NCBI GenBank assembly: GCA_944349595.1
Contig: CALVNF010000002.1
Coordinates: 175,468 to 239,467 of the forward strand
From: an uncultured Bacilli bacterium
GTDB lineage: Bacteria > Bacillota_I > Bacilli_A > RFN20 > CAG-826
Reading direction: 5' to 3'
DNA length: 64,000 nucleotides
Below, piece after piece: positions 4,958 through 35,792 of the stretch. The position numbers and the translations under genes were made by a program. Under the pieces are notes generated by a model. That model saw nothing but the letters and a program-made list of their open reading frames with translations. It made no database searches and was not told the DNA's origin. Within the stretch, counting starts at the first letter, position 1. Each line of letters starts with the position of its first letter.

Positions 4958-7526
4958 AATAATAATTATAGATGGCTATTCGATACTATTTAGAGCATAT
5001 TATGCAACGGCATATAAAGGCGAAGATACAATTTTAAAAACTTCTACTGGAATTCCAATTAATGCCATTTTTACTTTTTCAAATATGGTACTTCCACTTT
5101 TATCTAATTTAAATAAAAACGATACTATTTTTGTTGCACTTGATAGTGGAAAAGAAACAAAAAGACATAAAGAATTTGCTGAATATAAGGCAAATAGACC
5201 TTCATGTCCTGAATCTTTAAAAATTCAAATGCCAATTTTAAGAGAACTTTTAGAAGCATTTAATATTCCTTTTTTTGAACAAGAAGGTGATGAAGCTGAT
5301 GATATTGCTGGTAGTGTTGCCAAAATGTCAAATGAACACAATTATAATGTTGAAATTTATACTAGTGATAAAGATTATCTACAATTAGTCAATAATAAAA
5401 CTTCAATATCTTTAATAAAAAAAGGCATGAAAGACATTCAAAAAGTAAATTTTGACAACTTTTATAACTTATACGACATGTTTCCAGAACAAATTAAAGA
5501 TTATAAAGGTTTAAGAGGGGATTCAAGTGATAATTTAAAAGGAATTCCTGGAATTGGAGAAAAAACTGCAATTACATTATTAAAAAAATATAATAATTTA
5601 GAAAATATCATTAATAATGCTCAAGAAATTGGCGGAAAATTATCACTTAAAATTATTGAAAATAAAGATAGTGGCATTTTATGTAAAAAATTAGCAACAA
5701 TTGATGTGGATTTGAATTTACCATTCAATTTTGAAGATATTTTATTTAAAGGAATTGATTTTAAAAAAGCAACGAACTTTTTAAATAAATATGAAATGAA
5801 AAGCTTAGTTAATAAAATTTCTAATATTGAAACAGAAATCACAAAACATGAAATAATAGAAAATTTTAATTTTGAAGAAGTAAATAATATTCCGGAGATT
5901 AATGACAAAGAAATTGGAATTTCTTTAAATTATGATTATACTTCAAATTACCACAACTGCGATATTTCAGGGTTTTTTATATCAACAAAAAACGCGAATT
6001 ATTATATTAAATATGATAATGCGATTTTAGATAAAAACTTTAAAAATATTTTACAAAATAGCGATATTAAAAAAGACTGTTTTAATTATAAAGCAATTGG
6101 ATATATATTAAAAAAGAATAATATAAATTTAAATGGAATAAATTGTGACTTATTATTATGTTCTTATTTATTAAATTCAAACAATTCTAGTGATGTTAAA
6201 ACAACCTTTTTATTTTTTGATAAGACTGATATAGATCCAAAAATTGATCAATTTAATTCATCGTTAAAAATTTCAATATATTCAAGACTTTTAAGCAATA
6301 AAATTCTTGATGATTTAAAAAATAAAGATGATTTTAATTTATATGAAAATATTGAGTTACCACTTTCTAAATGTTTATTAAATATGGAATATGAAGGATT
6401 TCCATTAAATAAACAAACATTATTAAATATTGCAAAAAATTATCAAGACAAACTAGATATATTAACTCACGATATTTATCAACTTGCTGGATGTGAATTT
6501 AATATCGATTCCCCAAAACAAGTTAGTAATTTATTATTTAATGTTTTACAATTAAAATCTAATAGAAAGTCGTCAACTTCTATTGATTATTTAAAATATT
6601 TAGTTGATGAACATCCTATAGTTGAAAAAATTTTGTCTTATCGAAAATATGCAAAATTATTAAACACTTATGTAAATGGTTTATTAAACTATATTGGAAA
6701 AGATAATAAAATTCATTGTATCTTTAACCAAGCTCAAACAACTACTGGAAGATTATCATCTAGTGAGCCAAATATGCAAAATATTGCCGTTAGAGATGAA
6801 GAATCAAAAGAAATTAGGAAAGCATTCTTCTATGATAATGATTTATATTACATATTATCTTATGATTATTCTCAAATTGAATTAAGAATTTTAGCTTCTC
6901 TGTCAAAATGTAAAAATTTAATAGATGCTTTTAATTCAAACATCGATATACATACCTTAACTGCTCAAAAAATATTTAATAAATTGGAAATTAACGAGCA
7001 AGAAAGAAGAAAGGCAAAAGCTGTCAATTTTGGAATAGTATATGGAATTTCTGATTACGGATTAAAAGAGCAAATTAATGTACCATTAAAAGAAGCAAAA
7101 GAAATAATAAATAAGTTTTATGAAACTTATCCAGAAATTAAAACATATATGCAAAATCAAATTGAATTTGCTACAAAAAATGGATATGTAAAAACAATAT
7201 TTAATAGAAAAAGATTTATTGAAGAAATAAATTCCCCTAATTATAGTAAAAGAGAATTTGCAAAAAGGGCCGCTTGTAATGCGCCAATTCAAGGCAGCGC
7301 TGCCGATATTATAAAAATTATAATGACTAAAATTGACAAATTACTTAAAAATTATGACTCAAAATTAGTTCTTCAAATTCATGATGAACTAATATTTAAA
7401 ATTAATAAAAATGAACTTGAAGAATTAAAAACAAAAATCAAAGACATCATGGAAAATACAATTAAATTAGATGTCAAATTAACAGTTGATGGAGGATATG
7501 CCAAAGATTGGTATAGTGTGAAATAA
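4950..7526 (+). CDS. polA: DNA polymerase I (5'-3' exonuclease + polymerase)
   Basis: Starts MNKIIIIDGYSILFRAYYA (5'-nuclease), with a Pol A-family polymerase C-terminus (RRKAKAVNFGIVYG, ...QIHDELIF). The ATG at 4950 is chosen over the upstream in-frame ATG at 4896, which would overlap the dnaE 3' end. Confidence 0.9.
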   Translation: MNKIIIIDGYSILFRAYYATAYKGEDTILKTSTGIPINAIFTFSNMVLPLLSNLNKNDTIFVALDSGKETKRHKEFAEYKANRPSCPESLKIQMPILRELLEAFNIPFFEQEGDEADDIAGSVAKMSNEHNYNVEIYTSDKDYLQLVNNKTSISLIKKGMKDIQKVNFDNFYNLYDMFPEQIKDYKGLRGDSSDNLKGIPGIGEKTAITLLKKYNNLENIINNAQEIGGKLSLKIIENKDSGILCKKLATIDVDLNLPFNFEDILFKGIDFKKATNFLNKYEMKSLVNKISNIETEITKHEIIENFNFEEVNNIPEINDKEIGISLNYDYTSNYHNCDISGFFISTKNANYYIKYDNAILDKNFKNILQNSDIKKDCFNYKAIGYILKKNNINLNGINCDLLLCSYLLNSNNSSDVKTTFLFFDKTDIDPKIDQFNSSLKISIYSRLLSNKILDDLKNKDDFNLYENIELPLSKCLLNMEYEGFPLNKQTLLNIAKNYQDKLDILTHDIYQLAGCEFNIDSPKQVSNLLFNVLQLKSNRKSSTSIDYLKYLVDEHPIVEKILSYRKYAKLLNTYVNGLLNYIGKDNKIHCIFNQAQTTTGRLSSSEPNMQNIAVRDEESKEIRKAFFYDNDLYYILSYDYSQIELRILASLSKCKNLIDAFNSNIDIHTLTAQKIFNKLEINEQERRKAKAVNFGIVYGISDYGLKEQINVPLKEAKEIINKFYETYPEIKTYMQNQIEFATKNGYVKTIFNRKRFIEEINSPNYSKREFAKRAACNAPIQGSAADIIKIIMTKIDKLLKNYDSKLVLQIHDELIFKINKNELEELKTKIKDIMENTIKLDVKLTVDGGYAKDWYSVK

Positions 7527-8929
7527 TGCCAGAATTACCAGAGGTTAGAACCGTTGTTGCCATATTAAATAATGAAGTTATTGGCAAAAAAATTAAAAAT
7601 GTAGAAATTATTTATGAGAGAATTGTCCAAAATGATTTAAATTTTTTTAAAGATGAATTAAAAGATCAAAGTATTATAAAAGTTGAAGCATTAGGAAAAT
7701 TTATCATATTTCATTTAACAAATAATCTTATTTTAATTTCACATTTAAGAATGGAAGGTAAATATTCTTTACTTAACAAAGATGAAAAAAATCCTCCTCA
7801 CTCTTGTGTAATTTTTTATTTTTATGATAATACAAAACTTGTTTATCACGATACAAGAAAATTTGGAATAATGGAATTAAAAACAACTTATAATTATTTA
7901 ACTTCAAAACCACTTTCTAATCTTGGACCAGAACCTTTTAAAATAGATGAAAATAATATTGAAAATATCTATAAAAAAATAACTAAAAATAAACCAATAA
8001 AAGAATTATTAATGGATCAAAGTATTATTTGTGGTATTGGCAATATTTATGCAGATGAAATATTATTTAAAGCAAAAATTAATCCTCTAACAAAAGGAAA
8101 AGATATTTCTTTTGAAAAATTTAAAGAAATTGTCTCAATATCAAAATCTACTCTAACAAAAGCAATAAATTTAGGTGGCTCAACTATTAAATCTTACCAT
8201 CCAAAAGATGGAATTGATGGAAAATTTCAAAACGAACTAGTTTGTTATGGACATTATGGAAAACCTTGTCCAAATTGTGGGACTTTATTTCATAAAATAT
8301 TTTTAAATGGTCGAGGAACTACTTTTTGCCCAAATTGTCAAATAAATTATGAACTAAAAAAAGCAGTTGGAATAACTGGAATTATAGGTTCAGGAAAAAG
8401 TGAATGCTTAGAAATATTTAATGAACTCGGTTTTAAAACGCTTTCTTGTGATAAAATTATAAAAAATTTATACGAAAATAATGATGAATTAAAACAAAAA
8501 ATTAATAAATTATTTTTTTATAAGGCACTAGATAAAAACAAAAATAAATTAAATTATTCAATTATGAGACAATTTATTTCTCAAGATGAAATTTTGCATG
8601 AAAATTTGGAAAATTTGGTATTTCCATTTGTTGAAGATGTTTTAATTAATGAAATTAAAAATTCAAATTATACTCTTATAATTGAAGTTCCACTCCTTTT
8701 TAAGGCGCATTTGCAGTATCTTTTTAAAAAGATAATATATGTAGAATCTAATAAAGAAACAATATTAGAAAGGTTAAAATTAAGAGGTTCAAAAAATCCA
8801 TTAGCAGACTATGAACTTTATTTAAAGAATAATAACTTTAAAATTTCTGATAATGTAATTATTTTAAAAAATAATTCAGATCTTAATAGCTTAAAAGAAC
8901 AAATAATAAAAATTAGTAAAGACCTTTAA
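7526..8929 (+). CDS. Formamidopyrimidine-DNA glycosylase (Fpg/MutM) fused in frame to dephospho-CoA kinase (CoaE)
   Basis: N-terminal MPELPEVRT and the zinc finger CPNCG...CPNCQ (~aa 1-275), then AVGITGIIGSGKSECLEIFNELGF..SCDKI, the CoaE P-loop and fold. This is one continuous 467-aa ORF. Confidence 0.8.
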   Translation: MPELPEVRTVVAILNNEVIGKKIKNVEIIYERIVQNDLNFFKDELKDQSIIKVEALGKFIIFHLTNNLILISHLRMEGKYSLLNKDEKNPPHSCVIFYFYDNTKLVYHDTRKFGIMELKTTYNYLTSKPLSNLGPEPFKIDENNIENIYKKITKNKPIKELLMDQSIICGIGNIYADEILFKAKINPLTKGKDISFEKFKEIVSISKSTLTKAINLGGSTIKSYHPKDGIDGKFQNELVCYGHYGKPCPNCGTLFHKIFLNGRGTTFCPNCQINYELKKAVGITGIIGSGKSECLEIFNELGFKTLSCDKIIKNLYENNDELKQKINKLFFYKALDKNKNKLNYSIMRQFISQDEILHENLENLVFPFVEDVLINEIKNSNYTLIIEVPLLFKAHLQYLFKKIIYVESNKETILERLKLRGSKNPLADYELYLKNNNFKISDNVIILKNNSDLNSLKEQIIKISKDL

Positions 8930-9836
8930 TTCCATCGATTTTCATCTCTTTAAATGTATTTTTAAATACATTTATGAGAGATTTATTTTTTAATGATTTA
9001 TAATCTTTGGTTGAAAAACTATTTATAGTATTTTCAATATCATAATCGCTGATAATAATTGTTAATAATCCATTTTTAATTCTTTCATTTAATATAGGAA
9101 TTAAGATTGTATCTCTTTTATAATCATTAAACGAACAATATGAAAAATTATCTAACACTAAAACTGAACAAGTTTTATATTCTTTTAATAAATCATTAAA
9201 TTTAATTTTGTCAATAAATGATAAGTCATTCAATTCTTGAATTCTTGATACACAATCTGCATATATACCATTAATTTTATTTTCCATTAAATATTCATTA
9301 AAAAATTTACTAACAAGAAAAGATTTACCACTTTTTTTGTCACCATATATAAAATAAAATTTATTTCCTTTTTTCTTTTTAACAACTTTAAAAAATTCTG
9401 TTATTACATTTAGTTTTGTACCTGAACAATCATCAAAAGTTGATTTTTTTAAATCGCTTAAATCAAATTGAATATCATTAATTAAAAATAAGGAATTTCT
9501 TAATGATATCTCTTTATAGAATTTACAAAAGTCATACTCTAAATAAATTGTTTTATTTTCATATTTTAAAATTGGGCAAAACCACATATTTTTTAATTTA
9601 CAACTATTAAAATCTCTGCAATTCTTACATATTTTTGTTTCATTATCATAATTGATAAACAAATTAATATTTTTTGCAACTTCAAAATTGGATATATTAT
9701 TTTCTTCTATAAAATTAATTATATCTTCATTTTTTAAAGCTTTATTAACAATATCTTGATTAGATTCTTGTTTATCGTTTAATTTAGATAAAAATTCATT
9801 ATCAATTAATTTAACAATTTCTTCACTCTTCATCAT
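8913..9836 (-). CDS. dnaI: Primosomal helicase-loader DnaI-like AAA+ protein
   Basis: 307 aa. N-terminal Cys-rich Zn-binding region (CKNCRDFNSC...CPIL), C-terminal Walker A GDKKSGKSF in an IstB/DnaC-like domain. It is co-oriented with and overlaps the upstream DnaB-like gene, as in the Bacillus dnaB-dnaI pair. Confidence 0.6.
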   Translation of the reverse strand: MMKSEEIVKLIDNEFLSKLNDKQESNQDIVNKALKNEDIINFIEENNISNFEVAKNINLFINYDNETKICKNCRDFNSCKLKNMWFCPILKYENKTIYLEYDFCKFYKEISLRNSLFLINDIQFDLSDLKKSTFDDCSGTKLNVITEFFKVVKKKKGNKFYFIYGDKKSGKSFLVSKFFNEYLMENKINGIYADCVSRIQELNDLSFIDKIKFNDLLKEYKTCSVLVLDNFSYCSFNDYKRDTILIPILNERIKNGLLTIIISDYDIENTINSFSTKDYKSLKNKSLINVFKNTFKEMKIDGIKGLY

Positions 9837-11082
9837 TTAATGCCTTCAATATTTCTTCAGTTGTATATATTTTTTTATCATCAATGTCTGTATCTTTTTT
9901 ATTTGTTTTATCAATAGATTTGTTTAAAATTTTTTTGTCAATATTTAACGTGTTATTTTTATTATTTTCAGAATTTAGTTTCTGTAAGAACATGATCGAA
10001 TCATATGCGCTATTTATATCATTTCTTAATAAAGTTGCGCCTATTTTTTCCATGAAATTTAAGTTAAGCAAGCCTTTATTTTTTTCTAAAGTATAGTCAA
10101 CAATTGCATTAATAACTCCATTTGCCAAACCTAAATCTAATTTCAATTTTTCCAATATTTTTAAATCAGAATGTATTGGATTAACATTATTCTGTTTTAT
10201 TTTTAAATAGTTATAAGGATCTAGTTTTTCCATATAATCAATTTTTTTAGATAAATCAGTTGAACTTGAAATCTTATATTTCTTTGTTTTTTGTTTTTTA
10301 ATATTTGCAAAAACAATTGAATCATAGCACTTACTTTTTACTAAATCTAAATCGATTTTTTTATCTTTTGAATAAAAATCAATGCAATTCATGACTATAT
10401 CAGCCATTAAAATTTCAGATAATCCATATAGATTAGCTAATTTTGCAAAATATTTAAGTTCTTCTTTTGTAAAGAAGTCATCTTTTAATTTATACTTTTC
10501 TTGAATTATTTTTTTAAAATAATCATAATCAAAATTCATTGGAGAATCTTTTGTTTTAACTTGCAAAAGAAACTCATTATTTTCTGGATTATAATCAAAA
10601 TCATTTGAATCTACATCAACATCAAATACTTCATCAAAGCGTGATGTTATTTCTTTAAAATTAGTTCTGTCAATTTTATTTGAAAATTCTTTTTTAATTT
10701 GTTCAACTTTATTTGAACCAATCGATCTTACTAATAATCCTTTTAATAAAACATCATCAAAAAAATTAATTGGGGATTTTGGAGAATAAACAACTTCTAA
10801 TAAAACATTGTCTTTAACATAACTTTTGATTAAACCTACTGCTTCTAATATTTTTCTTGCATTATTAAAATCATCTAAATTAAATTTTAAAGACATTAAT
10901 AAATTACTTAATTCATTTTCTTTTTCATTTAAATGAATTTTATATGTGTATAAAAAATATAAGCTTAAAGCATTACATCCAATTATTGGTAAATATAATT
11001 TTGCAATAATCATTTCGCCTATGTTAGATAAGATAGAATTTGTATCTAATTTTATTAAAAAATCTTCATTAATTTTTTCCAT
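9823..11082 (-). CDS. Replication initiation / membrane attachment protein (B. subtilis DnaB / DnaD-domain family)
   Basis: 419 aa. Gene position immediately 5' of dnaI. The DnaD-like C-terminal region is weakly recognisable only. Confidence 0.45.
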   Translation of the reverse strand: MEKINEDFLIKLDTNSILSNIGEMIIAKLYLPIIGCNALSLYFLYTYKIHLNEKENELSNLLMSLKFNLDDFNNARKILEAVGLIKSYVKDNVLLEVVYSPKSPINFFDDVLLKGLLVRSIGSNKVEQIKKEFSNKIDRTNFKEITSRFDEVFDVDVDSNDFDYNPENNEFLLQVKTKDSPMNFDYDYFKKIIQEKYKLKDDFFTKEELKYFAKLANLYGLSEILMADIVMNCIDFYSKDKKIDLDLVKSKCYDSIVFANIKKQKTKKYKISSSTDLSKKIDYMEKLDPYNYLKIKQNNVNPIHSDLKILEKLKLDLGLANGVINAIVDYTLEKNKGLLNLNFMEKIGATLLRNDINSAYDSIMFLQKLNSENNKNNTLNIDKKILNKSIDKTNKKDTDIDDKKIYTTEEILKALNDEE

Positions 11083-11193
11083 AACAATATATTAACATAA
11101 AATGATTTAAGAAATATAAAATGAATTGTTATATTTTTAAAAAAAATATAAAAAATATGTTAATATATTTAAGTAATTAGGAGAGACAAAATA

Positions 11194-12147
11194 ATGAAAA
11201 TAGGAATCTTAACTTCGGGTGGCGATGCCCCAGGAATGAATGCTGCAATTAGAGCGGTAACTTTTGCTGCAATTAACAAAGGTTTTGAAGTTTTTGCCAT
11301 ATATGATGGCTATAAAGGTATGGTGAATGGAAACATCAAAAAATTAACAAAAAATGATGTTGATGAAATAATTAATCGCGGCGGAACTATTATTAGATCT
11401 GCTAGATTACCAGAATTTAAAGAATTAGAAGTTAGAAAAAAAGCCGTTGAGCAACTTAAAAAACACGATATTGACGCAATTGTTGTTATCGGTGGTGATG
11501 GTTCATACATGGGAGCTAAAAAGCTTGAAGAACTTGGAATTAAGTGCGTCGGCTTACCAGGAACTATTGATAATGACATTTCTAGCACTGATTTTACAAT
11601 TGGTTTTGATACTTCATTAAATACAATTGTTGAAGAAATTGAAAAAATTAAAGATACTGGAAGAAGTCATTCACGTTGCATGCTAGTTGAAGTTATGGGT
11701 AATCATTGTGATGATTTGGCTTTATATAGTGCAATTGCAACTGGTGCTGATTTAGTAATTTCAAAAAATCATATGATATCTAATGAAGATACCGTAAAAA
11801 GATTAAACAAAATGAAAGAAAATGGTCAAATATTTTCTTTAGTTGTTGTTGCTGAAAAAACAATAGATACAAATAAATTATTACAAGATATTCAAGAAAA
11901 TACCGATTGGGACGCAAGATTAACAATTCTTGGTCATACTCAAAGAGGTGGCATTCCTTCTGCAATGGAAAAAGTTTTAGCAACAAAAATGGGATATTAT
12001 GCTGTTAAACTTTTATCTCAAAATATTACCGGAGTCTGCGTTGGAATAAAAGAAAACAAGATTGTTTATGAAGATATTCTTGATGCATTAAAAAAGGAAA
12101 CATTAGTTTCTAATGAATTAGTTGAAGTTATTGATAATTTAAATTAA
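11194..12147 (+). CDS. pfkA: ATP-dependent 6-phosphofructokinase
   Basis: MKIGILTSGGDAPGMNAAIRAV..., GGDGS and the TILGHTQRGG motifs. It is the first gene of the classical pfkA-pyk operon. Confidence 0.9.
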   Translation: MKIGILTSGGDAPGMNAAIRAVTFAAINKGFEVFAIYDGYKGMVNGNIKKLTKNDVDEIINRGGTIIRSARLPEFKELEVRKKAVEQLKKHDIDAIVVIGGDGSYMGAKKLEELGIKCVGLPGTIDNDISSTDFTIGFDTSLNTIVEEIEKIKDTGRSHSRCMLVEVMGNHCDDLALYSAIATGADLVISKNHMISNEDTVKRLNKMKENGQIFSLVVVAEKTIDTNKLLQDIQENTDWDARLTILGHTQRGGIPSAMEKVLATKMGYYAVKLLSQNITGVCVGIKENKIVYEDILDALKKETLVSNELVEVIDNLN

Positions 12148-12159
12148 GGGGATGATATT

Positions 12160-13614
12160 ATGTATAACATCACAAGAAATACTAAAATTGTTTGTACGAT
12201 CGGACCTGCAAGTGACAATAAAGAAACACTTAAAAAATTAATTAAAGCAGGCATGTCTGTTATGAGAATTAATTTTTCTCACGGTGATTATGCCGAACAC
12301 CAAAAGAAAATTGATTTAATTAGAGAAATTGAAAAAGAAGAAAATATTTGTGTCCCAATTATGTTAGATACAAAGGGACCAGAAATTAGAACCGGAAAAT
12401 TTGTAAATGGATTAGCCACAATTAAAGATAAATCAATTGTTAGAATTTTAATGAAAGAATGTTTAGGTGATGAAACTAAATTTTCTGTCACATTTACTGA
12501 TTTATATGATGATGTTGACATCGGAAATATAATTAAATTAGATGATGGAAAATTAGAGTTAAAAGTAATTGATAAAGATTCAGAAAAACGAGAATTAATT
12601 ACACAAGCTTTAAACACTCATACTATTAAAGATAAAAGAGGAGTTAATATCCCTGGAGTTCATTTATCTTTACCATTTATTTCTGAAAAAGATAAGAACG
12701 ATTTAATTTTTGGCTGTAAAAATAATGTCGATTATATTTCTGCAAGTTTCATTAGATCACCTGAAGATATTAAGGCAATTAGAAAAATTTTAAAAGATAA
12801 TGGCAAAGAAAACATTAAAATCATTTCAAAAATTGAAAACCAAGAAGCATTAACTTGCCTTGATGAAATTGTCAAAGAATCTGATGGAATTATGGTTGCA
12901 AGAGGTGATTTAGGTGTTGAAGTCCAAGCTGAAGATGTCCCAATTATTCAAATTGATTTAATAAAAAAATGTAGAAATTTAGGAAAACCAGTCATTACTG
13001 CTACTCAAATGCTTGATTCAATGATTTCAAATCCAAATCCAACTAGAGCTGAAGTTAGTGATGTTGCTACTGCTGTTTCTGAATCAAGCGATGCTGTTAT
13101 GTTATCCGGCGAATCTGCAAATGGTCTTTATCCTGTTGAAGCTTGTTCAATGCAAGCAAAAATTGCTCATAAGATGGAAAAATATCTTGATTATGAAAAA
13201 TTAGCTCAAGAAGCATATGATACTTCAAATAAGGATAATAACGATGCTATCGCAAATTCAATTGCAAATACAGCTTTATTAATTGGAGCAAAATTAATTG
13301 TATGTTTTACTGAAACTGGCCGTACTGCTTTTAGAATTTCAAAAGCAAGACCATGTTGTCCAATTATTGCTGTAACAAATAATAAAAATACTGCTGAAAA
13401 TTTGGGTGTTTATTGGGGTGTTTTTGCAAGCTATATCCCAACAAAAATTATGCCAGATTTTATTGAAGAGATGGAAGTTATCGCTCTTTCAAATGCAATG
13501 AAATATGGCCTAAAACCTGGTTCAACAATTATTGTTGCTGGTGGTACACCAACTGGAAGTGGAAATACCAATTTCATGAGAATTGTATATGTTCCTGAAT
13601 TAAAGGATATTTAA
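12160..13614 (+). CDS. pyk: Pyruvate kinase
   Basis: 484 aa. TKIVCTIGPAS, MVARGDLGVE, and the C-terminal regulatory domain. Confidence 0.9.
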   Translation: MYNITRNTKIVCTIGPASDNKETLKKLIKAGMSVMRINFSHGDYAEHQKKIDLIREIEKEENICVPIMLDTKGPEIRTGKFVNGLATIKDKSIVRILMKECLGDETKFSVTFTDLYDDVDIGNIIKLDDGKLELKVIDKDSEKRELITQALNTHTIKDKRGVNIPGVHLSLPFISEKDKNDLIFGCKNNVDYISASFIRSPEDIKAIRKILKDNGKENIKIISKIENQEALTCLDEIVKESDGIMVARGDLGVEVQAEDVPIIQIDLIKKCRNLGKPVITATQMLDSMISNPNPTRAEVSDVATAVSESSDAVMLSGESANGLYPVEACSMQAKIAHKMEKYLDYEKLAQEAYDTSNKDNNDAIANSIANTALLIGAKLIVCFTETGRTAFRISKARPCCPIIAVTNNKNTAENLGVYWGVFASYIPTKIMPDFIEEMEVIALSNAMKYGLKPGSTIIVAGGTPTGSGNTNFMRIVYVPELKDI

Positions 13615-28081: not shown

Positions 28082-28270
28082 ACGTACAAAATATAATACT
28101 TTAATTAAGAAAAAATTTCAACAATAAAATTACTTATTGTAAAAATATCAATCAGTAAAAATAATATTGATGGGGGTAAAATTAAATTAACCAAAAAGGT
28201 GAAAATAACATTTACCATTTTATGGAATATTCTATAATTTTCCAAAAGGAGTAATTACGGAATTAAATTG

Positions 28271-28754
28271 AATATTCTAACGCTTCGGAGCCACCAGTTT
28301 AAAGCTTGTGAGCCATACCCTATTTAACTAATAATTTTGACCTTGAGAGCCATCTTTAAATTATATCCCCTAAAATATTTTTACTTGAGTTTTTATTGAC
28401 TAATTTCAACCATAATTCAGGAAAATATTTTATATAATATTTTTTAAGACGCACAATTGTTCAACTTTTAAAACTTTAAATTCATATAAAAAAACATTAT
28501 TTTTAGTATTATTTAAATAAGGTGGATATGATTTTAGCTAATGTACGTTTTATATTTAAATAAATACAATATTAGTAATAAGAAATATTAAAATAAATTT
28601 TTTTAATTAATTGACAAAATATAGAAAGAAATTTTTAACGATTTATTTTATGAATTTATTTAAAAATGTAGATGCTCCGAAACTCTAAATCGCTAATTAA
28701 AGTGGGTATGGCTCTCAAGCTCTAAACTGAGGCCTCCCAAGCACTAGAATATTC
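28271..28754. mobile_element. ~484-bp non-coding element bounded by 51-bp imperfect inverted repeats (MITE-like or structured RNA)
   Basis: The left repeat at 28271-28321 and the reverse complement of 28704-28754 match at ~43 of 51 positions. The interior is ~380 bp of AT-rich sequence with no ORF. It lies in a 0.9-kb ORF-free gap between tRNA-Val and tRNA-Leu. Confidence 0.4.
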
Positions 28755-28939
28755 ACTTATAAGAGCAACAAATATTAATACTATACATAATTTTTTTAAT
28801 ACTAATTCTTTAGAAGAATTTAAAACGAAATTCATTTCTTCTAAGAATTTAAAAAATAAGCTCATTTCTTTAGAATTTGATATAAATAAAATGTGGAATA
28901 CAAAATCTACCTTGCATTGTATTCAAAGTTCGCCTAAAG

Positions 28940-29069
28940 AAATTATTAAAAGTTGACAGTTTTTAAAGTCTAAATAAAGTTGACAACACTGTCAACATAA
29001 AAATTAAATAACCCCCAAATAACCCCCAAGCAACAAAAAAAGCCGATAAAATCGGCATTATTTATTAAT
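28940..29069. repeat. tRNA-trailing conserved element, copy A
   Basis: Compared with 44433-44561: TTGACA..N27..TTGACAnnnnTGTCAA palindrome, ATAAAAAT, (AAATAACCCCC)x2, and the hairpin AAAAAAAGCCGATAAAATCGGC. The hairpin is a rho-independent terminator for the minus-strand tRNA-Leu. Confidence 0.6.
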
Positions 29070-29156
29070 TGGTGCTCGAAGAGGGACTTGAACCCTCATG
29101 AGTTTAACCTCGATGGATTTTGAGTCCATTGCGTCTACCAGTTCCACCATTCGAGC
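29070..29156 (-). tRNA. tRNA-Leu (anticodon CAA), class II with long variable arm
   Basis: Reverse complement: acceptor GCTCGAA/TTCGAGC, anticodon loop CTCAAAA, T-arm GAGGGTTCAAGTCCCTC, and CCA encoded. Confidence 0.8.
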
Positions 29157-29165
29157 GCTCTAATA

Positions 29166-30345: not shown

Positions 30346-30370
30346 AAAAAGCCCGTTTTTAGCGGGCTTA
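30346..30370 (-). terminator. Intrinsic terminator after enolase
   Basis: Minus strand: AAGCCCGCTAAAAACGGGCTTTTT. Confidence 0.7.
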
Positions 30371-30398: not shown

Positions 30399-31736
<1,338 letters not shown>

Positions 31737-31773
31737 TCAAATTAAATATTAAATAATTAAAATTATTTATAAT

Positions 31774-34455
31774 TTACATTAAAGCACCAGAACCATTATA
31801 ATTTTTGTCATATATCATAATTAAAAATTCTGGGTGATCAATAAATGGATTTCTATTATGTTGATAATATTGATCAACATTATTATTTCTATTAACTTCA
31901 TAATCACTAACTGGATCTTGACCACTTGTTGCCCATTTATATAAAGCAGCAAAATCTCCATGAAGTCCATTTGCTCCAGAGGTGAAATTATTATATAAAG
32001 TATTGTCAATATTACCACCCACTTCTAAATCTTTTTCACCACTATCTCCTTCATATCTAACAGCCATATAGAATATAGTTCTTGCAATATCACCTTTAAA
32101 TTCATCTTTTGGTTCAAAATATGATGAGTCTCGATAATTTCCAATCATAGTCGATCTAAATTGTGGTTTGCTATGATCAAGATTATCATTTTCTTCACCG
32201 ACAAATCCAAAATCTAAATTGCCTCTGCAACTATTTAGCCAGTTATCACATGGATGTAAATTATTTAAATCAGAACCTTCTGGAATTCTTGTATCAAAAT
32301 CACCATGACTTTTAGCCCAGACATGCTCCTTATTCATACCAGTAGATTTAGGATAACTTCCTTCATACATTATGATATAATTTTTTGAATTAAATGGATC
32401 TTCATCAATTAAATTAAAATCAGAAGAATCTAATTCTCCATATCCAAAAGTTGTGTGGTCATCAATTATATTATGTAATGCTTGTTTTAATTCAGCGCCT
32501 TTTAAACCTCTAACTGGTTCATAATAAGTATCAATACTTCCTTGATTTCCTCTTGATGGATAGATTGAATTATTTCCATATAAATAATCATAATTATCAT
32601 TATGAGATGTTTGTTCTTTAAATATAATGCTTAAAACATTATTTTCTTGAGTTAATCTGAATTTATAATTATTAGATGAAATAAATTCTCCACTATTACC
32701 ATTTAAAGTAATTGAAGAGACAAAATACCCATTATTTGGGGAAGTTTTAACATTTATGTAGTCTCCAACAAATAAATTGTTATTTGGAGTTACACTTACT
32801 TCACCTTCTCCAGTTTTATTTATAGTTAAATTAGCTTTAACTGGTTCTTTATTTAATAAATATGTGATATTAATTCCATATAAAATCGCTCTATTTTCAC
32901 CATTTGTTTTTAATTCAAGATTTGTAACATTATCAGTATTAAAAATATAGACATTATTACTTAAAACTTTTTGAGTAATAGATTTTAAGGAAGTTGTGAA
33001 ATTTTTTAAAGTTAATGTAATTTCCGGATCATCATCATTATATTGTTTAACAATTAATTCTACAGAAACAATGCTTATTGTACTAGCAAATTCAAATTCA
33101 ATAGTCGCACCTTTACTAGTTCCTGTTCTAAAACTATCTTCATTACTATCTTTATATAAGTTTGAAGAAGTAACTGAATTTATTTCAATATCTTTAAGTT
33201 CTAAATTATTTTCTTGTAAAGAAAAATAACCATTAGTATTTAAATTGACAAAATTAATACTTCCAGTAACTTCGTTTAATATAGGTTCATCTTTTATAAA
33301 ACTTGCAGTTATTAAATATTGTTTTTCTTCATTAACTACAAAACTTAAAGTTGATAAAATTGAAGCACCATTAACTTCAAGAGATGATAATTTGTAACCA
33401 TCATTTGGAGTAACAATTACTTCTATTTCACTTCCTAATAAAACACTTGAATTATTTTCATAATCTTTAAATTTTACACTACCATTTTCTATATTATTAG
33501 ATATAGAGATAGTTGCGTATTTATCAGTATTTCCAATATATTTAAATGTTGCATTAACAACATATTCAATATATTCTTCCACTATAAAAGATTTACTACT
33601 TTTAATTGAAATACCATTAACAGTTAAAGTATCTAATTCATAATCTTTATTGGGAATAACTTCAATTTCAACCTTTGTATTAAGACTAACTTTTGAATTA
33701 TTTTCATAATTTTTAAACTTTATGACACCATTTTTTATACTTTCGTCAATTTTAATAGTTGCATATTGTTCTACAGGTGGAACATATTTAAAACTTGCTG
33801 AAACTAAATATGTTATTTCTTCTTGTGCAATAAAACTTAAACTTGATTTTATTGAAACTCCATTAACTGTTAGTGTGTCTAGTTCATAATTGGTATCAGG
33901 AGTTATTTTTAAATCAACATTTGTATTTAATTTAACTTTATCGCCGTTATTAAAATTGATAAATTCGATTTTTCCATTTTGTATATTTTCATCGATTTTA
34001 ATAGTAGCAAATTTTTCTTCTTCACTTATTTTTTTAAATGTTGCATCTACATAATAATCTTTTTCTTCATTGACAATAAAACTTAAACTTGATTTTATTG
34101 AAAGTCCATTAACAGTCAATGTATCAAGTTCATAATTTACATCTGGATTTACAACAACATTAATTTTTGTATTAAATAATACTTTTGAATTATTTGAATA
34201 ATCTTCAAATCTAATTGAACCATTTATGGTATTTTCATTAAATATAATAGTTCCATATTTTTCATCTTGACTAGTTGTTGTAGTTGTTGAATTTGAATTA
34301 CTAGAGGTATTTTGACTTGTCGTATTAGTTGAAGTTGTTATATTAGTTGTAGTTTGATTTGAAGAACTACTTGAATTTGAAGTAGTTAAATTAGTTGTGC
34401 TACATGATGTTAAGAAAAGTGTTAACATCATTAATAAATTAAATTTTCTAAACAT
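31774..34455 (-). CDS. Surface lipoprotein with Ser/Thr-rich linker, four tandem ~85-aa repeats and C-terminal Endonuclease-I (EndA/NucM-type) nuclease domain
   Basis: Signal peptide plus lipobox LFLTSC. Linker TTSNSSSSSNQTTTN... Four repeats of YATIKIDExIxNGxIxF...DYELDTLTVNG(L/V/I)SIKSSLSF. The C-terminus carries the motifs NKEHVWAKSHG, NLHPCDNWLNSCRGN and GDIARTIFYM, which are characteristic of the Endonuclease_1 family. Confidence 0.6.
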   Translation of the reverse strand: MFRKFNLLMMLTLFLTSCSTTNLTTSNSSSSSNQTTTNITTSTNTTSQNTSSNSNSTTTTTSQDEKYGTIIFNENTINGSIRFEDYSNNSKVLFNTKINVVVNPDVNYELDTLTVNGLSIKSSLSFIVNEEKDYYVDATFKKISEEEKFATIKIDENIQNGKIEFINFNNGDKVKLNTNVDLKITPDTNYELDTLTVNGVSIKSSLSFIAQEEITYLVSASFKYVPPVEQYATIKIDESIKNGVIKFKNYENNSKVSLNTKVEIEVIPNKDYELDTLTVNGISIKSSKSFIVEEYIEYVVNATFKYIGNTDKYATISISNNIENGSVKFKDYENNSSVLLGSEIEVIVTPNDGYKLSSLEVNGASILSTLSFVVNEEKQYLITASFIKDEPILNEVTGSINFVNLNTNGYFSLQENNLELKDIEINSVTSSNLYKDSNEDSFRTGTSKGATIEFEFASTISIVSVELIVKQYNDDDPEITLTLKNFTTSLKSITQKVLSNNVYIFNTDNVTNLELKTNGENRAILYGINITYLLNKEPVKANLTINKTGEGEVSVTPNNNLFVGDYINVKTSPNNGYFVSSITLNGNSGEFISSNNYKFRLTQENNVLSIIFKEQTSHNDNYDYLYGNNSIYPSRGNQGSIDTYYEPVRGLKGAELKQALHNIIDDHTTFGYGELDSSDFNLIDEDPFNSKNYIIMYEGSYPKSTGMNKEHVWAKSHGDFDTRIPEGSDLNNLHPCDNWLNSCRGNLDFGFVGEENDNLDHSKPQFRSTMIGNYRDSSYFEPKDEFKGDIARTIFYMAVRYEGDSGEKDLEVGGNIDNTLYNNFTSGANGLHGDFAALYKWATSGQDPVSDYEVNRNNNVDQYYQHNRNPFIDHPEFLIMIYDKNYNGSGALM

Positions 34456-34478
34456 AATATAAATTTTTGTTCTATCTA

Positions 34479-35669
34479 TTATTGTTTATTAGATTTAAAA
34501 CATGACATTAAAATTTTATAAACATCATCATGATTTAAAATTTTATAGCTTGTTGGTGATAAATTTACACTATATGCAATTTCTTTAACTAAATCTGCAT
34601 CATGAACGCCAAGTTCTTCTAAACTTGTTGCAAGTTTAGAAGCTTTTATAAATTCTTCTAGACAATCAATTCCTTTTAAAGCGACTTCACCATCACTTTT
34701 TCCGTTTGGATTTACATTAAAAACATTTGTTGCAAATCTTTTAAATTTTTCAAGTCCATCTTTATATATGTATCTATAATAATTTGGAGAAATAACTGCT
34801 AATCCCATGCCGTGAGCGCAATCTGTATATGCTCCAATTTGGTGTTCAATATTATGAACATTCCAATCTTGAGTTTTTCCAACTCCTAAAATTGTATTTA
34901 ACGCCATAGAAGCAATCCACATTAAATTACTTCTTGCAATATAATTTTTAGGATTTTGATAAGACAAATATGAATTTTTTATTAATGATTTCATTAAAGC
35001 TTCTAATAAATCATCACTTACATTATCATCACTTCCGGAAAAATATTGTTCCATCATGTGAGAAAATGCATCAAAAATCCCACTTCTCATTTGATATTCA
35101 GAAACAGTATATGTTAATTTTGGGTTTAATATTGAAAATTTTGGTTCGCAACCAAAAAATACTCTTCCTTCTTTAATATTTAAATCATAATTAGTTATAA
35201 CAGATCCGCCATTCATTTCACTTCCGGTTCCAACCATTGTAAGAATTGATCCAACTGGAACAATTTTTTGATTTTTATCTAGTGGTTTTTTAGCTAAATA
35301 TAAATCTTTAAATACATCACCTTTTTCGTAATATGCACCAACCGATATTCCTTTTGCACAGTCAATAACACTACCGCCACCAACTGCTAATATTAAATCA
35401 ACATTATTTTCTTTTACCAATTTAATACCTTCTAAAACTTTTTCGTATGATGGATTTGGTCTAACATCACTTAATTCAAATACATTCTTTTTTGAATTAT
35501 TTAAAATTTTAATTAAATAATCATATAATCCAATTTTTTTAATTGATTCATGACCATAAACTAATAAAATATTATCACCATAATTTGTTAATTCATCTTT
35601 TAAATAATCAAGTGATTTTTCTCCAAAATATATCTTTGTTTTGTTTTGATAAATGAAATCTTGCAACAT
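34479..35669 (-). CDS. Iron-containing alcohol dehydrogenase
   Basis: GGGSVIDCAKG motif. The start is set at MLQDFIY (35669) because GGAGGGG sits 3-4 nt upstream. The ORF-track start at 35681 would include the SD. Confidence 0.8.
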   Translation of the reverse strand: MLQDFIYQNKTKIYFGEKSLDYLKDELTNYGDNILLVYGHESIKKIGLYDYLIKILNNSKKNVFELSDVRPNPSYEKVLEGIKLVKENNVDLILAVGGGSVIDCAKGISVGAYYEKGDVFKDLYLAKKPLDKNQKIVPVGSILTMVGTGSEMNGGSVITNYDLNIKEGRVFFGCEPKFSILNPKLTYTVSEYQMRSGIFDAFSHMMEQYFSGSDDNVSDDLLEALMKSLIKNSYLSYQNPKNYIARSNLMWIASMALNTILGVGKTQDWNVHNIEHQIGAYTDCAHGMGLAVISPNYYRYIYKDGLEKFKRFATNVFNVNPNGKSDGEVALKGIDCLEEFIKASKLATSLEELGVHDADLVKEIAYSVNLSPTSYKILNHDDVYKILMSCFKSNKQ

Positions 35670-35774
35670 AAACCCCTCCAAAAATAGTTGTCAAAACCTA
35701 ATTCTTTATTATTATATAATAATAAAAATTTTTTTCTACTTAGGTATTTACAATAAAAATTAATTATATTAAAA

Positions 35775-35792
35775 TAGTTCGGTGGCGAACTA
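35775..35792. promoter_or_regulatory. Perfect 18-bp palindrome TAGTTCG-GTGG-CGAACTA overlapping the marR SD; candidate MarR autoregulatory operator
   Basis: Seen directly in the sequence. It ends 3 nt before the marR ATG (35795), in the divergent region shared with the Fe-ADH gene. Confidence 0.4.

Follow-up and report, generated by a model that had tools for sequence, protein, structure and literature searches.

In the Vibrio endonuclease I Vvn, the ligands of the metal and the scissile phosphate are Glu79 and Asn127, and the general base is His80 (PMC5758888). Two Bacillus enzymes carrying an EndA domain, Bsn and binase II, are extracellular ribonucleases (RNases) of about 30 kDa (PMC12229549), and phosphate depletion induces the multidomain PF04231 nucleases that Flavobacterium has at its outer membrane, which have a nutrient-scavenging role (PMC8115612). 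In the Mycoplasma hominis group, a lipoprotein nuclease is encoded upstream of a sugar-type ATP-binding cassette (ABC) importer, is co-transcribed with it, and has been read as a supplier of nucleotide precursors (PMC3585158; PMC12115388); a review of mycoplasma nucleases nowhere mentions endonuclease I (PMC12115388). The gene analyzed in this study encodes an 893-amino-acid (aa) protein with a C-terminal Endonuclease I domain and an N-terminal lipoprotein signal. It lies on the minus strand of a 64,000-nucleotide stretch of DNA (hereafter, the window) from an uncultured Bacilli bacterium (assembly GCA_944349595.1, contig CALVNF010000002.1, positions 175,468 to 239,467).

We consider it fairly likely, judging from the sequence, that this gene encodes a surface-tethered, lipid-anchored, metal-dependent nuclease that scavenges nucleic acids, probably without discriminating between DNA and RNA. 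The catalytic domain and the anchor are described first, followed by the modules between them, the family, the gene context, and the alternative explanations.

The Endonuclease I Domain

The region 31774..34455 holds a single open reading frame (ORF) with an ATG start, 893 codons, and a stop codon. The whole gene and its catalytic features are located as follows.

31774..34455, minus strand: complete coding sequence (ORF list; same length in relatives at 93-94% identity)
31777..32613, minus strand: Endonuclease I (His-Me finger) nuclease domain, aa 615-893 (PF04231)
32323..32328, minus strand: Glu710-His711 codons, predicted metal ligand and general base (invariance; alignment with Vvn)
32233..32235, minus strand: Asn741 codon, predicted Mg2+ and scissile-phosphate ligand (invariance; alignment with Vvn)

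The initial annotation, made from the letters alone, had proposed a C-terminal Endonuclease I domain with the catalytic motifs of its family and had named a hidden Markov model (HMM) search with PF04231 as a check. The Pfam match is well over the cut-off (Endonuclease_1 at aa 657-876, 98.2 bits versus a cut-off of 25, E=8e-28, profile positions 6-235 of 235), and all the peptide strings quoted in that annotation were found, namely LFLTSC (aa 13-18), NKEHVWAKSHG (aa 708-718), LHPCDNW (aa 733-739), RGN (aa 744-746), and DIARTIFYM (aa 789-797). Neither a loss of the catalytic His and Asn residues nor the lack of a lipoprotein signal, which the same annotation had named as evidence that would speak against it, was observed. 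The nuclease domain alone has 5048 homologues at E<=1e-5. An alignment of 40 sequences, with identities to the query of 31-95%, shows E710, H711, S716, D729, and N741 to be invariant and R744 and N746 to be nearly so.

Among the structures in the PDB, the profile of this alignment matches only the Vibrio endonuclease I/Vvn (E=5e-15). N741 is aligned with N109 of the Vvn chain, which is Asn127 in the numbering of the paper, and a shorter profile aligns E710-H711 with chain positions 61-62, that is, Glu79-His80. Profiles were needed for this match: a single-sequence phmmer search of the PDB yielded marginal matches only (E=0.27), and a 66-aa fragment around the active site yielded no PDB match. 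As for Arg99 of Vvn, which contacts the scissile phosphate, the stretch between the EH and DLxxL motifs is without a residue-level alignment to Vvn, and K715 and R744 are conserved candidates for the equivalent position. The AlphaFold2 model of the domain has a mean predicted local distance difference test score (pLDDT) of 94.1. This model shows the beta-beta-alpha-metal arrangement: one strand has NKEH at its end, a second contains LHPC, and the helix after it carries N741. The predicted fold agrees with that of the solved endonuclease I structures.

The conserved set of disulfides of the proteobacterial periplasmic enzymes is absent, the only cysteines of the domain being C736 and C743, both of which are replaced in the homologues P0002 and P0003. 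The deltaproteobacterial members of the family likewise lack these disulfides (PMC3593177); the missing disulfides set the protein apart from the Vibrio/E. coli subgroup, not from the Endonuclease I family. The closest named homologues outside its own clade are Bacillus-group proteins annotated as endonuclease or ribonuclease (45-50% identity over 86-92% of the domain), and Bacteroidales endonucleases with a tail of the type IX secretion system (T9SS) are also near, with 45-50% identity in the nuclease domain. Thus, by HMM, fold, and active site, the protein is a member of the Endonuclease I family, in a disulfide-poor clade nearest to the Bacillus Bsn-type enzymes. The label "DNase" used in the initial annotation is too narrow in view of these Bsn-class relatives; "sugar-nonspecific nuclease" would be the safer label.

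Lipoprotein Signal and Linker

The N-terminus is occupied by two features.

34402..34455, minus strand: lipoprotein signal peptide, aa 1-18, MFRKFNLLMMLTLFLTS followed by C (sequence reading; family-wide conservation of the Cys)
34264..34401, minus strand: low-complexity Ser/Thr/Asn linker, aa 19-64 (composition)

The signal was judged by reading the sequence and by a regular expression for the lipobox. It has a charged n-region (R3 and K4), a hydrophobic core (LLMMLTLFL), and the lipobox L-T-S-C, which fits the pattern [LVI][ASTVI][GAS]C within the first ~35 residues; the codon of Cys18 is at 34402-34404. No other window ORF of at least 100 aa has a convincing lipoprotein signal; two match the bare lipobox motif, but within apparently cytoplasmic sequence. 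In the regular-expression scan the lipobox Cys is conserved in 22 of the 29 family members, and five of the seven misses are explained by four N-terminally truncated entries and by the L006 homologue with an off-pattern SLFSC. The lipid anchor that had been placed at LFLTSC is thus a canonical lipobox with a conserved Cys, which would be acylated.

The linker contains 18 Thr, 14 Ser, and 8 Asn in 46 residues. It has the same length in the relatives L001 and L004, yet its amino acid identity to them is just 85-87%, and it is lacking in P0002 and P0003.

B-Repeats and Middle Domain

Between the linker and the nuclease domain lie five repeats and a beta-sandwich.

34018..34263, minus strand: B-repeat 1, aa 65-146 (self-alignment; PF18998 E=0.0035 alone, 17.7 bits)
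33772..34017, minus strand: B-repeat 2, aa 147-228 (self-alignment; PF18998 E=0.0072 alone, 16.7 bits)
33526..33771, minus strand: B-repeat 3, aa 229-310 (self-alignment; PF18998 E=0.029 alone, 14.8 bits)
33280..33525, minus strand: B-repeat 4, aa 311-392 (self-alignment; PF18998 E=2.2e-6 alone, 28.0 bits)
32839..33279, minus strand: middle domain, aa 393-539 (147 aa), beta-sandwich (jelly-roll) of the carbohydrate-binding-module type, without a Pfam family
32614..32838, minus strand: B-repeat 5 (divergent), aa 540-614 (PF18998 E=1.2e-4, 22.4 bits; local HMM match)

Repeats 1-4 are in tandem with a period of exactly 82 aa and are 43-59% identical to each other in protein and 61-69% identical in DNA, while repeat 5 is 22-28% identical to them in the self-alignment. 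In Pfam, the whole protein matches PF18998 Flg_new_2 ("divergent InlB B-repeat") in four stretches with 63.3 bits versus a cut-off of 23.6. When scanned singly, all five copies match PF18998 and no other family, repeat 4 alone exceeding the cut-off. The InlB B repeat, whose structure is solved, is compact and beta-grasp-like, with a flexible link to its neighbor (PMC8900821). The four tandem repeats of ~85 aa that had been reported as Ig-like are therefore real as tandem copies, but their period is 82 aa, a fifth copy is present, and the Ig-like label is probably wrong, the beta-grasp-like fold being taken from the PF18998 prototype.

Tandem Repeats Finder reported no DNA-level array of 246-nt repeats in the region 31700-34600. 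The lack of such an array and the nucleotide identity of 61-69% indicate that the repeats are old duplications and that the copies are poor substrates for slippage. The gene was accordingly rejected as a slippage-prone repeat locus. The repeat count, which had been expected to vary, is four in all three closest relative sequences, but ranges from 0 to 4 over the wider family.

The "long middle region" of the initial annotation is present and resolves into a discrete beta-sandwich (aa 393-539) and the fifth B-repeat (aa 540-614). The AlphaFold2 model of the sandwich, built on an alignment of 33 sequences, is all-beta with a pLDDT of 93.4 and has a beta-jelly-roll fold (galactose-binding-domain-like); the identity to its structural neighbors is at most 17%. 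No Pfam family covers this region, either here or in nine other proteins that carry the domain. Copies of it were seen by eye in P0002, in P0003, and four times in P0005. The middle-domain alignment retrieved no homologues in a word-indexed search, whereas an exhaustive search with a profile of these copies over 1.84 billion representatives yielded 626 proteins at E<=1e-3, 60 of them at E<=1e-10; the empty indexed search is thus a limit of sensitivity. Many of the carriers are large surface proteins holding several copies, and the other Pfam domains of the nine carriers are Big_2, peptidase C10, dockerin, CHB_HEX_C, or Endonuclease_1. The recurring motif of the domain is ...GLKFGSSK..G.LTL.L....I.KI.....YG.D.......R.YI..I.VY, with Arg (R522 here) as the sole position conserved at >=90%. 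The middle domain has a fold of the binding-module type and, going by this modeled fold, most likely serves in ligand docking.

An additional observation concerns the 1201-aa ENA metagenome protein P0005, a lipoprotein composed of about nine B-repeats interleaved with four beta-sandwich copies, without a nuclease. P0005, being built of stalk and binding modules alone, shows that they also occur as a surface protein in their own right.

Family and Selection

The exact protein sequence has no identical entry in the databases. The homologue P0001 is 93% identical, has 893 aa, and is encoded on a 383-kb contig; the same gene, with 94% identity and 893 aa, was found on an 879-kb contig of an "uncultured bacterium" bin, and further relatives include a metagenome-assembled genome labeled "uncultured Bacilli bacterium". 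The closest relatives, P0001/L001, L002, and L004 (93-94% amino acid identity), all have 893 aa and four repeats. These three sequences represent two distinct loci, the proteins of L001 and L002 being the same.

A local HMM scan of 29 family members revealed a common plan, that is, a lipobox, 0-4 B-repeats, an optional middle domain, and then the nuclease. The lipobox Cys is kept in nearly all members, whether they have 0, 1, 2, 3, or 4 B-repeats, and many members consist of the lipobox and the nuclease only, without a stalk. The anchor and the enzyme are thus the constant part of the family, and the length of the stalk is the part that varies over evolutionary time.

Compared with L001 and L004, the ratio of nonsynonymous to synonymous substitution rates (dN/dS) is 0.14-0.15 when the gene is taken as a whole. 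Its nuclease domain gives 0.12-0.14, its repeats 0.12-0.28, and its linker 0.22-0.25; the value for the neighboring enolase is 0.03. With 95-96% amino acid identity to L001 and L004, the nuclease domain ranks with the best-conserved parts of the protein. Since dN/dS is low (0.12-0.15), the gene is functional and not decaying; it is under purifying selection, at the faster pace typical of surface proteins. The GC content of the gene (24.9%) equals that of the window (24.7%), so that the gene looks native, and horizontal acquisition was rejected on the same grounds.

Gene Context

In the window, as in L001 and L004, the gene order is an iron-containing alcohol dehydrogenase (Fe-ADH) gene, 23 nt, the nuclease gene, 70 nt, and the enolase gene eno. 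A terminator scan gave no candidate from Fe-ADH through the nuclease gene to eno, but did give one behind eno, at 30349-30369. As no terminator was detected within this group of genes, co-transcription of the nuclease gene with central-metabolism genes and its constitutive expression are possible, and the arrangement hints, weakly, that the nuclease gene may indeed be co-transcribed with Fe-ADH and eno and expressed constitutively. The eno gene has its own -10-like TATAAT and a strong Shine-Dalgarno sequence, and probably also has its own promoter.

Several features of these intergenic regions and neighbors were recorded in addition. In the 70 nt that separate the nuclease gene from eno (31704-31773, minus strand) there are an AT-rich tandem repeat of ~17 nt at 31728-31766, the -10-like element TTGATATAAT, and an AAAGGAG Shine-Dalgarno sequence. 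The terminator-like element at 30349-30369 is a GC-rich hairpin (AAGCCCG...CGGGCTT) between eno and an HI0933-like gene, with T-runs on both sides that make it terminator-like on both strands. The Fe-ADH gene (34479-35681, minus strand) is listed with a TTG start (400 aa), while the ATG at 35669 gives 396 aa; the latter is probably the true start, because it is preceded by TGGAGG and because the called gene of a relative has 395 aa. The 18-bp palindrome before marR (35775-35792) was also scored by the terminator scan on the minus strand, as a 7-bp stem followed by TTTTAATATA. It is a possible operator, but it might also terminate or attenuate transcription that comes in from the marR side. Over the window, 27 of the 42 long ORFs have an upstream match of at least 4/6 to AGGAGG. 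The remaining 15, without a recognizable Shine-Dalgarno sequence, include the nuclease gene, a polymerase-like 1038-aa gene, and a Gmk-like gene. Finally, an island with an integrase, an AAA_21/SMC_N gene, and a helix-turn-helix gene was found downstream of the HI0933-like gene in L001 (11512-14682), at a position where the window has a non-coding gap beside tRNA-Val (~28100-29165). The L001 island looks like a strain-variable element integrated at a tRNA.

The context is different in more distant relatives. In L006, the gene 85 nt downstream of the homologue encodes a 597-aa UgpC/MalK-type ATPase, which is unusually long, and is itself followed by genes for two permeases and a 554-aa solute-binding lipoprotein; the gaps at the permeases are 3 and 2 nt, and the whole module spans L006 positions 6055-13017. 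In L005 (5830-13967), two tandem nuclease paralogs, both lipoproteins, are followed by an importer of the same type. An importer of the L006 type was looked for in the window, L001, L003, and L004, but nothing beyond generic ABC ATPase similarity to the MarR-linked exporters was found, so that the window carries no such importer. In L003 (5375-8361), a 786-aa homologue with three B-repeats starts 3 nt after upp, encoding uracil phosphoribosyltransferase (257 bits on TIGR01091, over the cut-off). Further along this locus, a dCMP-deaminase-family gene lies ~3.6 kb downstream of the homologue. A PNP_UDP_1 gene of L003, considered as evidence for purine salvage, was dropped, as its product resembles methylthioadenosine/S-adenosylhomocysteine nucleosidases and falls below the NCBIfam cut-offs.

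The initial annotation had suggested that the protein is a nucleotide-acquisition factor. The acquisition role remains an inference, which is supported by the importer or upp gene adjacent to the homologue in relatives; in the window the adjoining genes are those of Fe-ADH and enolase.

Proposed Function and Alternatives

The features described above can be arranged into the following scheme. After Sec export, Cys18 would be acylated and become the N-terminus of the mature protein, fixed to the outer face of the membrane. The flexible Ser/Thr/Asn linker and the four B-repeats would then form a stalk that, from the number of domains, may be tens of nanometres long, and this stalk would bear the beta-sandwich, the fifth B-repeat, and, at its tip, the Endonuclease I domain. 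As its fold suggests, the beta-sandwich would most likely attach the enzyme to a polymeric ligand, which may be a glycan or some other surface. The predicted His-Me finger site (Glu710, His711, and Asn741, assigned by alignment) would cut extracellular nucleic acid to oligonucleotides. These products would be further degraded and imported, so as to supply nucleotide salvage and the phosphate needs of a small-genome organism, a step suggested by the gene context in the relatives.

Several observations weigh against this scheme. The immediate neighbors of the gene in the window are Fe-ADH and enolase, not an importer or a salvage gene. The gene itself lacks a recognizable Shine-Dalgarno sequence (3/6 match), although it is only one of 15 such genes among the 42 of the window. 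The alignment of the E-H segment to Vvn is weak when taken alone (0.6 bits), although it is made credible by its colinearity with the significant C-terminal match and by the invariance of the residues. The annotation of the closest named relatives as both endonuclease and ribonuclease is compatible with a preference for either substrate. Finally, the fold class of the middle domain includes non-glycan binders, such as IFT25 and phage nozzle proteins.

The same relatives raise the question whether the protein is chiefly an extracellular RNase of the Bacillus Bsn/binase II type with little DNase activity, RNA being abundant in gut contents and lysed cells. The labels of the Bacillus-group homologues at 45-50% identity, some of them "ribonuclease", and the absence of the four disulfides of proteobacterial DNases, with C736 and C743 alone present and unconserved, point in this direction. 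However, these names are annotation transfers, not assays, the N-terminal PF19886 domain of the Bacillus proteins is absent here, and the active site has the same residues as that of Vvn, which cleaves DNA, so that we regard a dedicated RNase as possible but doubtful. A role in remodeling or clearing extracellular DNA (eDNA) instead of feeding, by turnover of biofilm matrix, escape from DNA traps, or limitation of foreign DNA uptake, as for Vibrio cholerae Dns and Bdellovibrio Bd1244, seems rather unlikely. In its favor, the extracellular endonuclease I of Vibrio is of the same catalytic family, nucleases of this family influence biofilm formation in both Vibrio and Bdellovibrio (PMC3593177), and a long stalk that bears a binding module would be suited to operating in a matrix; but the genes found next to the homologues in relatives are an ABC importer and upp, not biofilm or competence genes, and nothing in the window ties the gene to either process. 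Clearing of eDNA and scavenging are, moreover, not mutually exclusive.

Two further explanations would make the nuclease subordinate or turn it to another target. The protein could be primarily an adhesin, binding host mucus or cells through its B-repeats and beta-sandwich, with the nuclease accessory or inactive. B-repeats do occur in Listeria internalins (PMC8900821), the modeled beta-sandwich resembles glycan-binding modules, and P0005 demonstrates the stalk modules without an enzyme. This is nevertheless very unlikely given the invariant catalytic residues, the 95-96% amino acid identity and dN/dS of 0.12-0.14 of the nuclease domain, and the many family members that have just a lipobox and a nuclease and no stalk. 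A contact-dependent nuclease toxin of the polymorphic type, its C-terminal nuclease being delivered into competitors, is superficially suggested by a long repetitive surface protein ending in a His-Me nuclease. We find it barely credible: no small immunity-type ORF lies downstream, where the next gene, 70 nt away, is enolase; the C-terminal domain is not variable but conserved, both throughout the family and among thousands of secreted nucleases of a housekeeping type; and PADLOC yielded no defense-system match and Pfam no toxin-delivery domains. The toxin/immunity reading was rejected for the lack of an immunity ORF, of C-terminal polymorphism, and of a PADLOC match.

A surface-tethered scavenging nuclease thus remains the reading that we favor, and it invites a more tentative, two-part extension. 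In the nucleotide-scavenging module of nuclease and ABC importer known from mycoplasmas, the Endonuclease I lipoprotein may, in this low-GC lineage of Bacilli, have displaced the SNase lipoprotein in a non-orthologous manner, with the length of the stalk tuned to envelope thickness or to the distance of the substrate; and the middle domain may be an unannotated, widespread ligand-binding family that targets the nuclease here to a specific polymer.

Nucleotide acquisition in uncultured small-genome gut Bacilli is largely guessed, and the nuclease provides a concrete candidate for the first step of scavenging. Further, no structure has been solved for its catalytic clade, the nearest PDB entry being ~20% identical, and the middle beta-sandwich is common but unnamed; both are potential targets for structural and domain annotation.

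Comparison with Known Systems

The Endonuclease I enzymes of Vibrio and E. coli (Vvn, V. cholerae Dns, and EndA; PF04231; PDB 1OUP, 2G7E, 2VND, and 2PU3) are 17-23% identical to the window domain, which is ~70 residues larger and lacks the conserved set of disulfides. They are single-domain, soluble, periplasmic or secreted proteins, whereas the enzyme of the window is the tip of an 893-aa lipoprotein. The nearest named catalytic relatives, at 45-50% identity, belong to the Bacillus Bsn/binase II class, B. subtilis Bsn itself standing outside this comparison; this class is likewise Gram-positive, disulfide-poor, and extracellular (PMC12229549). The Bacillus homologues have 330-400 aa, in most cases with an N-terminal PF19886 domain (DUF6359), and are secreted as far as their names indicate. 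The window protein, for which Pfam gives no PF19886 match, has instead a lipobox, a linker, five B-repeats, and a beta-sandwich.

The mycoplasma membrane nucleases (mhp379, MAG_5040, MG_186, and Mpn133) are likewise lipoprotein-anchored nonspecific nucleases of a low-GC, small-genome lineage of Bacilli. Their genes often lie upstream of an ABC importer, and the order of nuclease, ATPase, two permeases, and a lipoprotein solute-binding protein is shared with L005 and L006 but is not found in the window. They have SNase/TNASE_3, EEP, or other folds and no long repeat stalk, whereas the window protein combines Endonuclease I with a stalk and has no TNASE_3 or SNase domain among its Pfam matches. 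As the catalytic domain differs, the protein may work like the mycoplasma membrane nucleases without being a member of their family.

Multidomain surface nucleases with PF04231 are also found in Bacteroidota, for instance, EndA1 and EndA2 of Flavobacterium johnsoniae (fn3, LTD, and PF04231), which likewise join Endonuclease I to non-catalytic beta-domains at the cell surface. However, their accessory domains are fn3, LTD, DUF5689, and Por_Secre_tail, their anchoring is by way of the T9SS and the outer membrane and not by an N-terminal lipid, and in the Bacteroidota-type protein P0007 the nuclease is N-terminal. The InlB B-repeats of Listeria internalins (PF18998), a family also present in other surface proteins of Firmicutes, similarly form tandem arrays in a surface protein (PMC8900821). 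In contrast to the internalins, the window protein has neither a leucine-rich repeat nor a GW module, and its repeats, whose fold is presumed from their sequence, would serve as the stalk of an enzyme.

The literature yielded no characterized example of a lipobox, Ser/Thr linker, B-repeat stalk, unnamed beta-sandwich, and Endonuclease I in one protein. The combination is new, whereas each of its elements and the overall logic are already known, and current understanding is not overturned. What the comparison adds is that a scavenging strategy of the mycoplasma type can apparently be built with a different nuclease fold.

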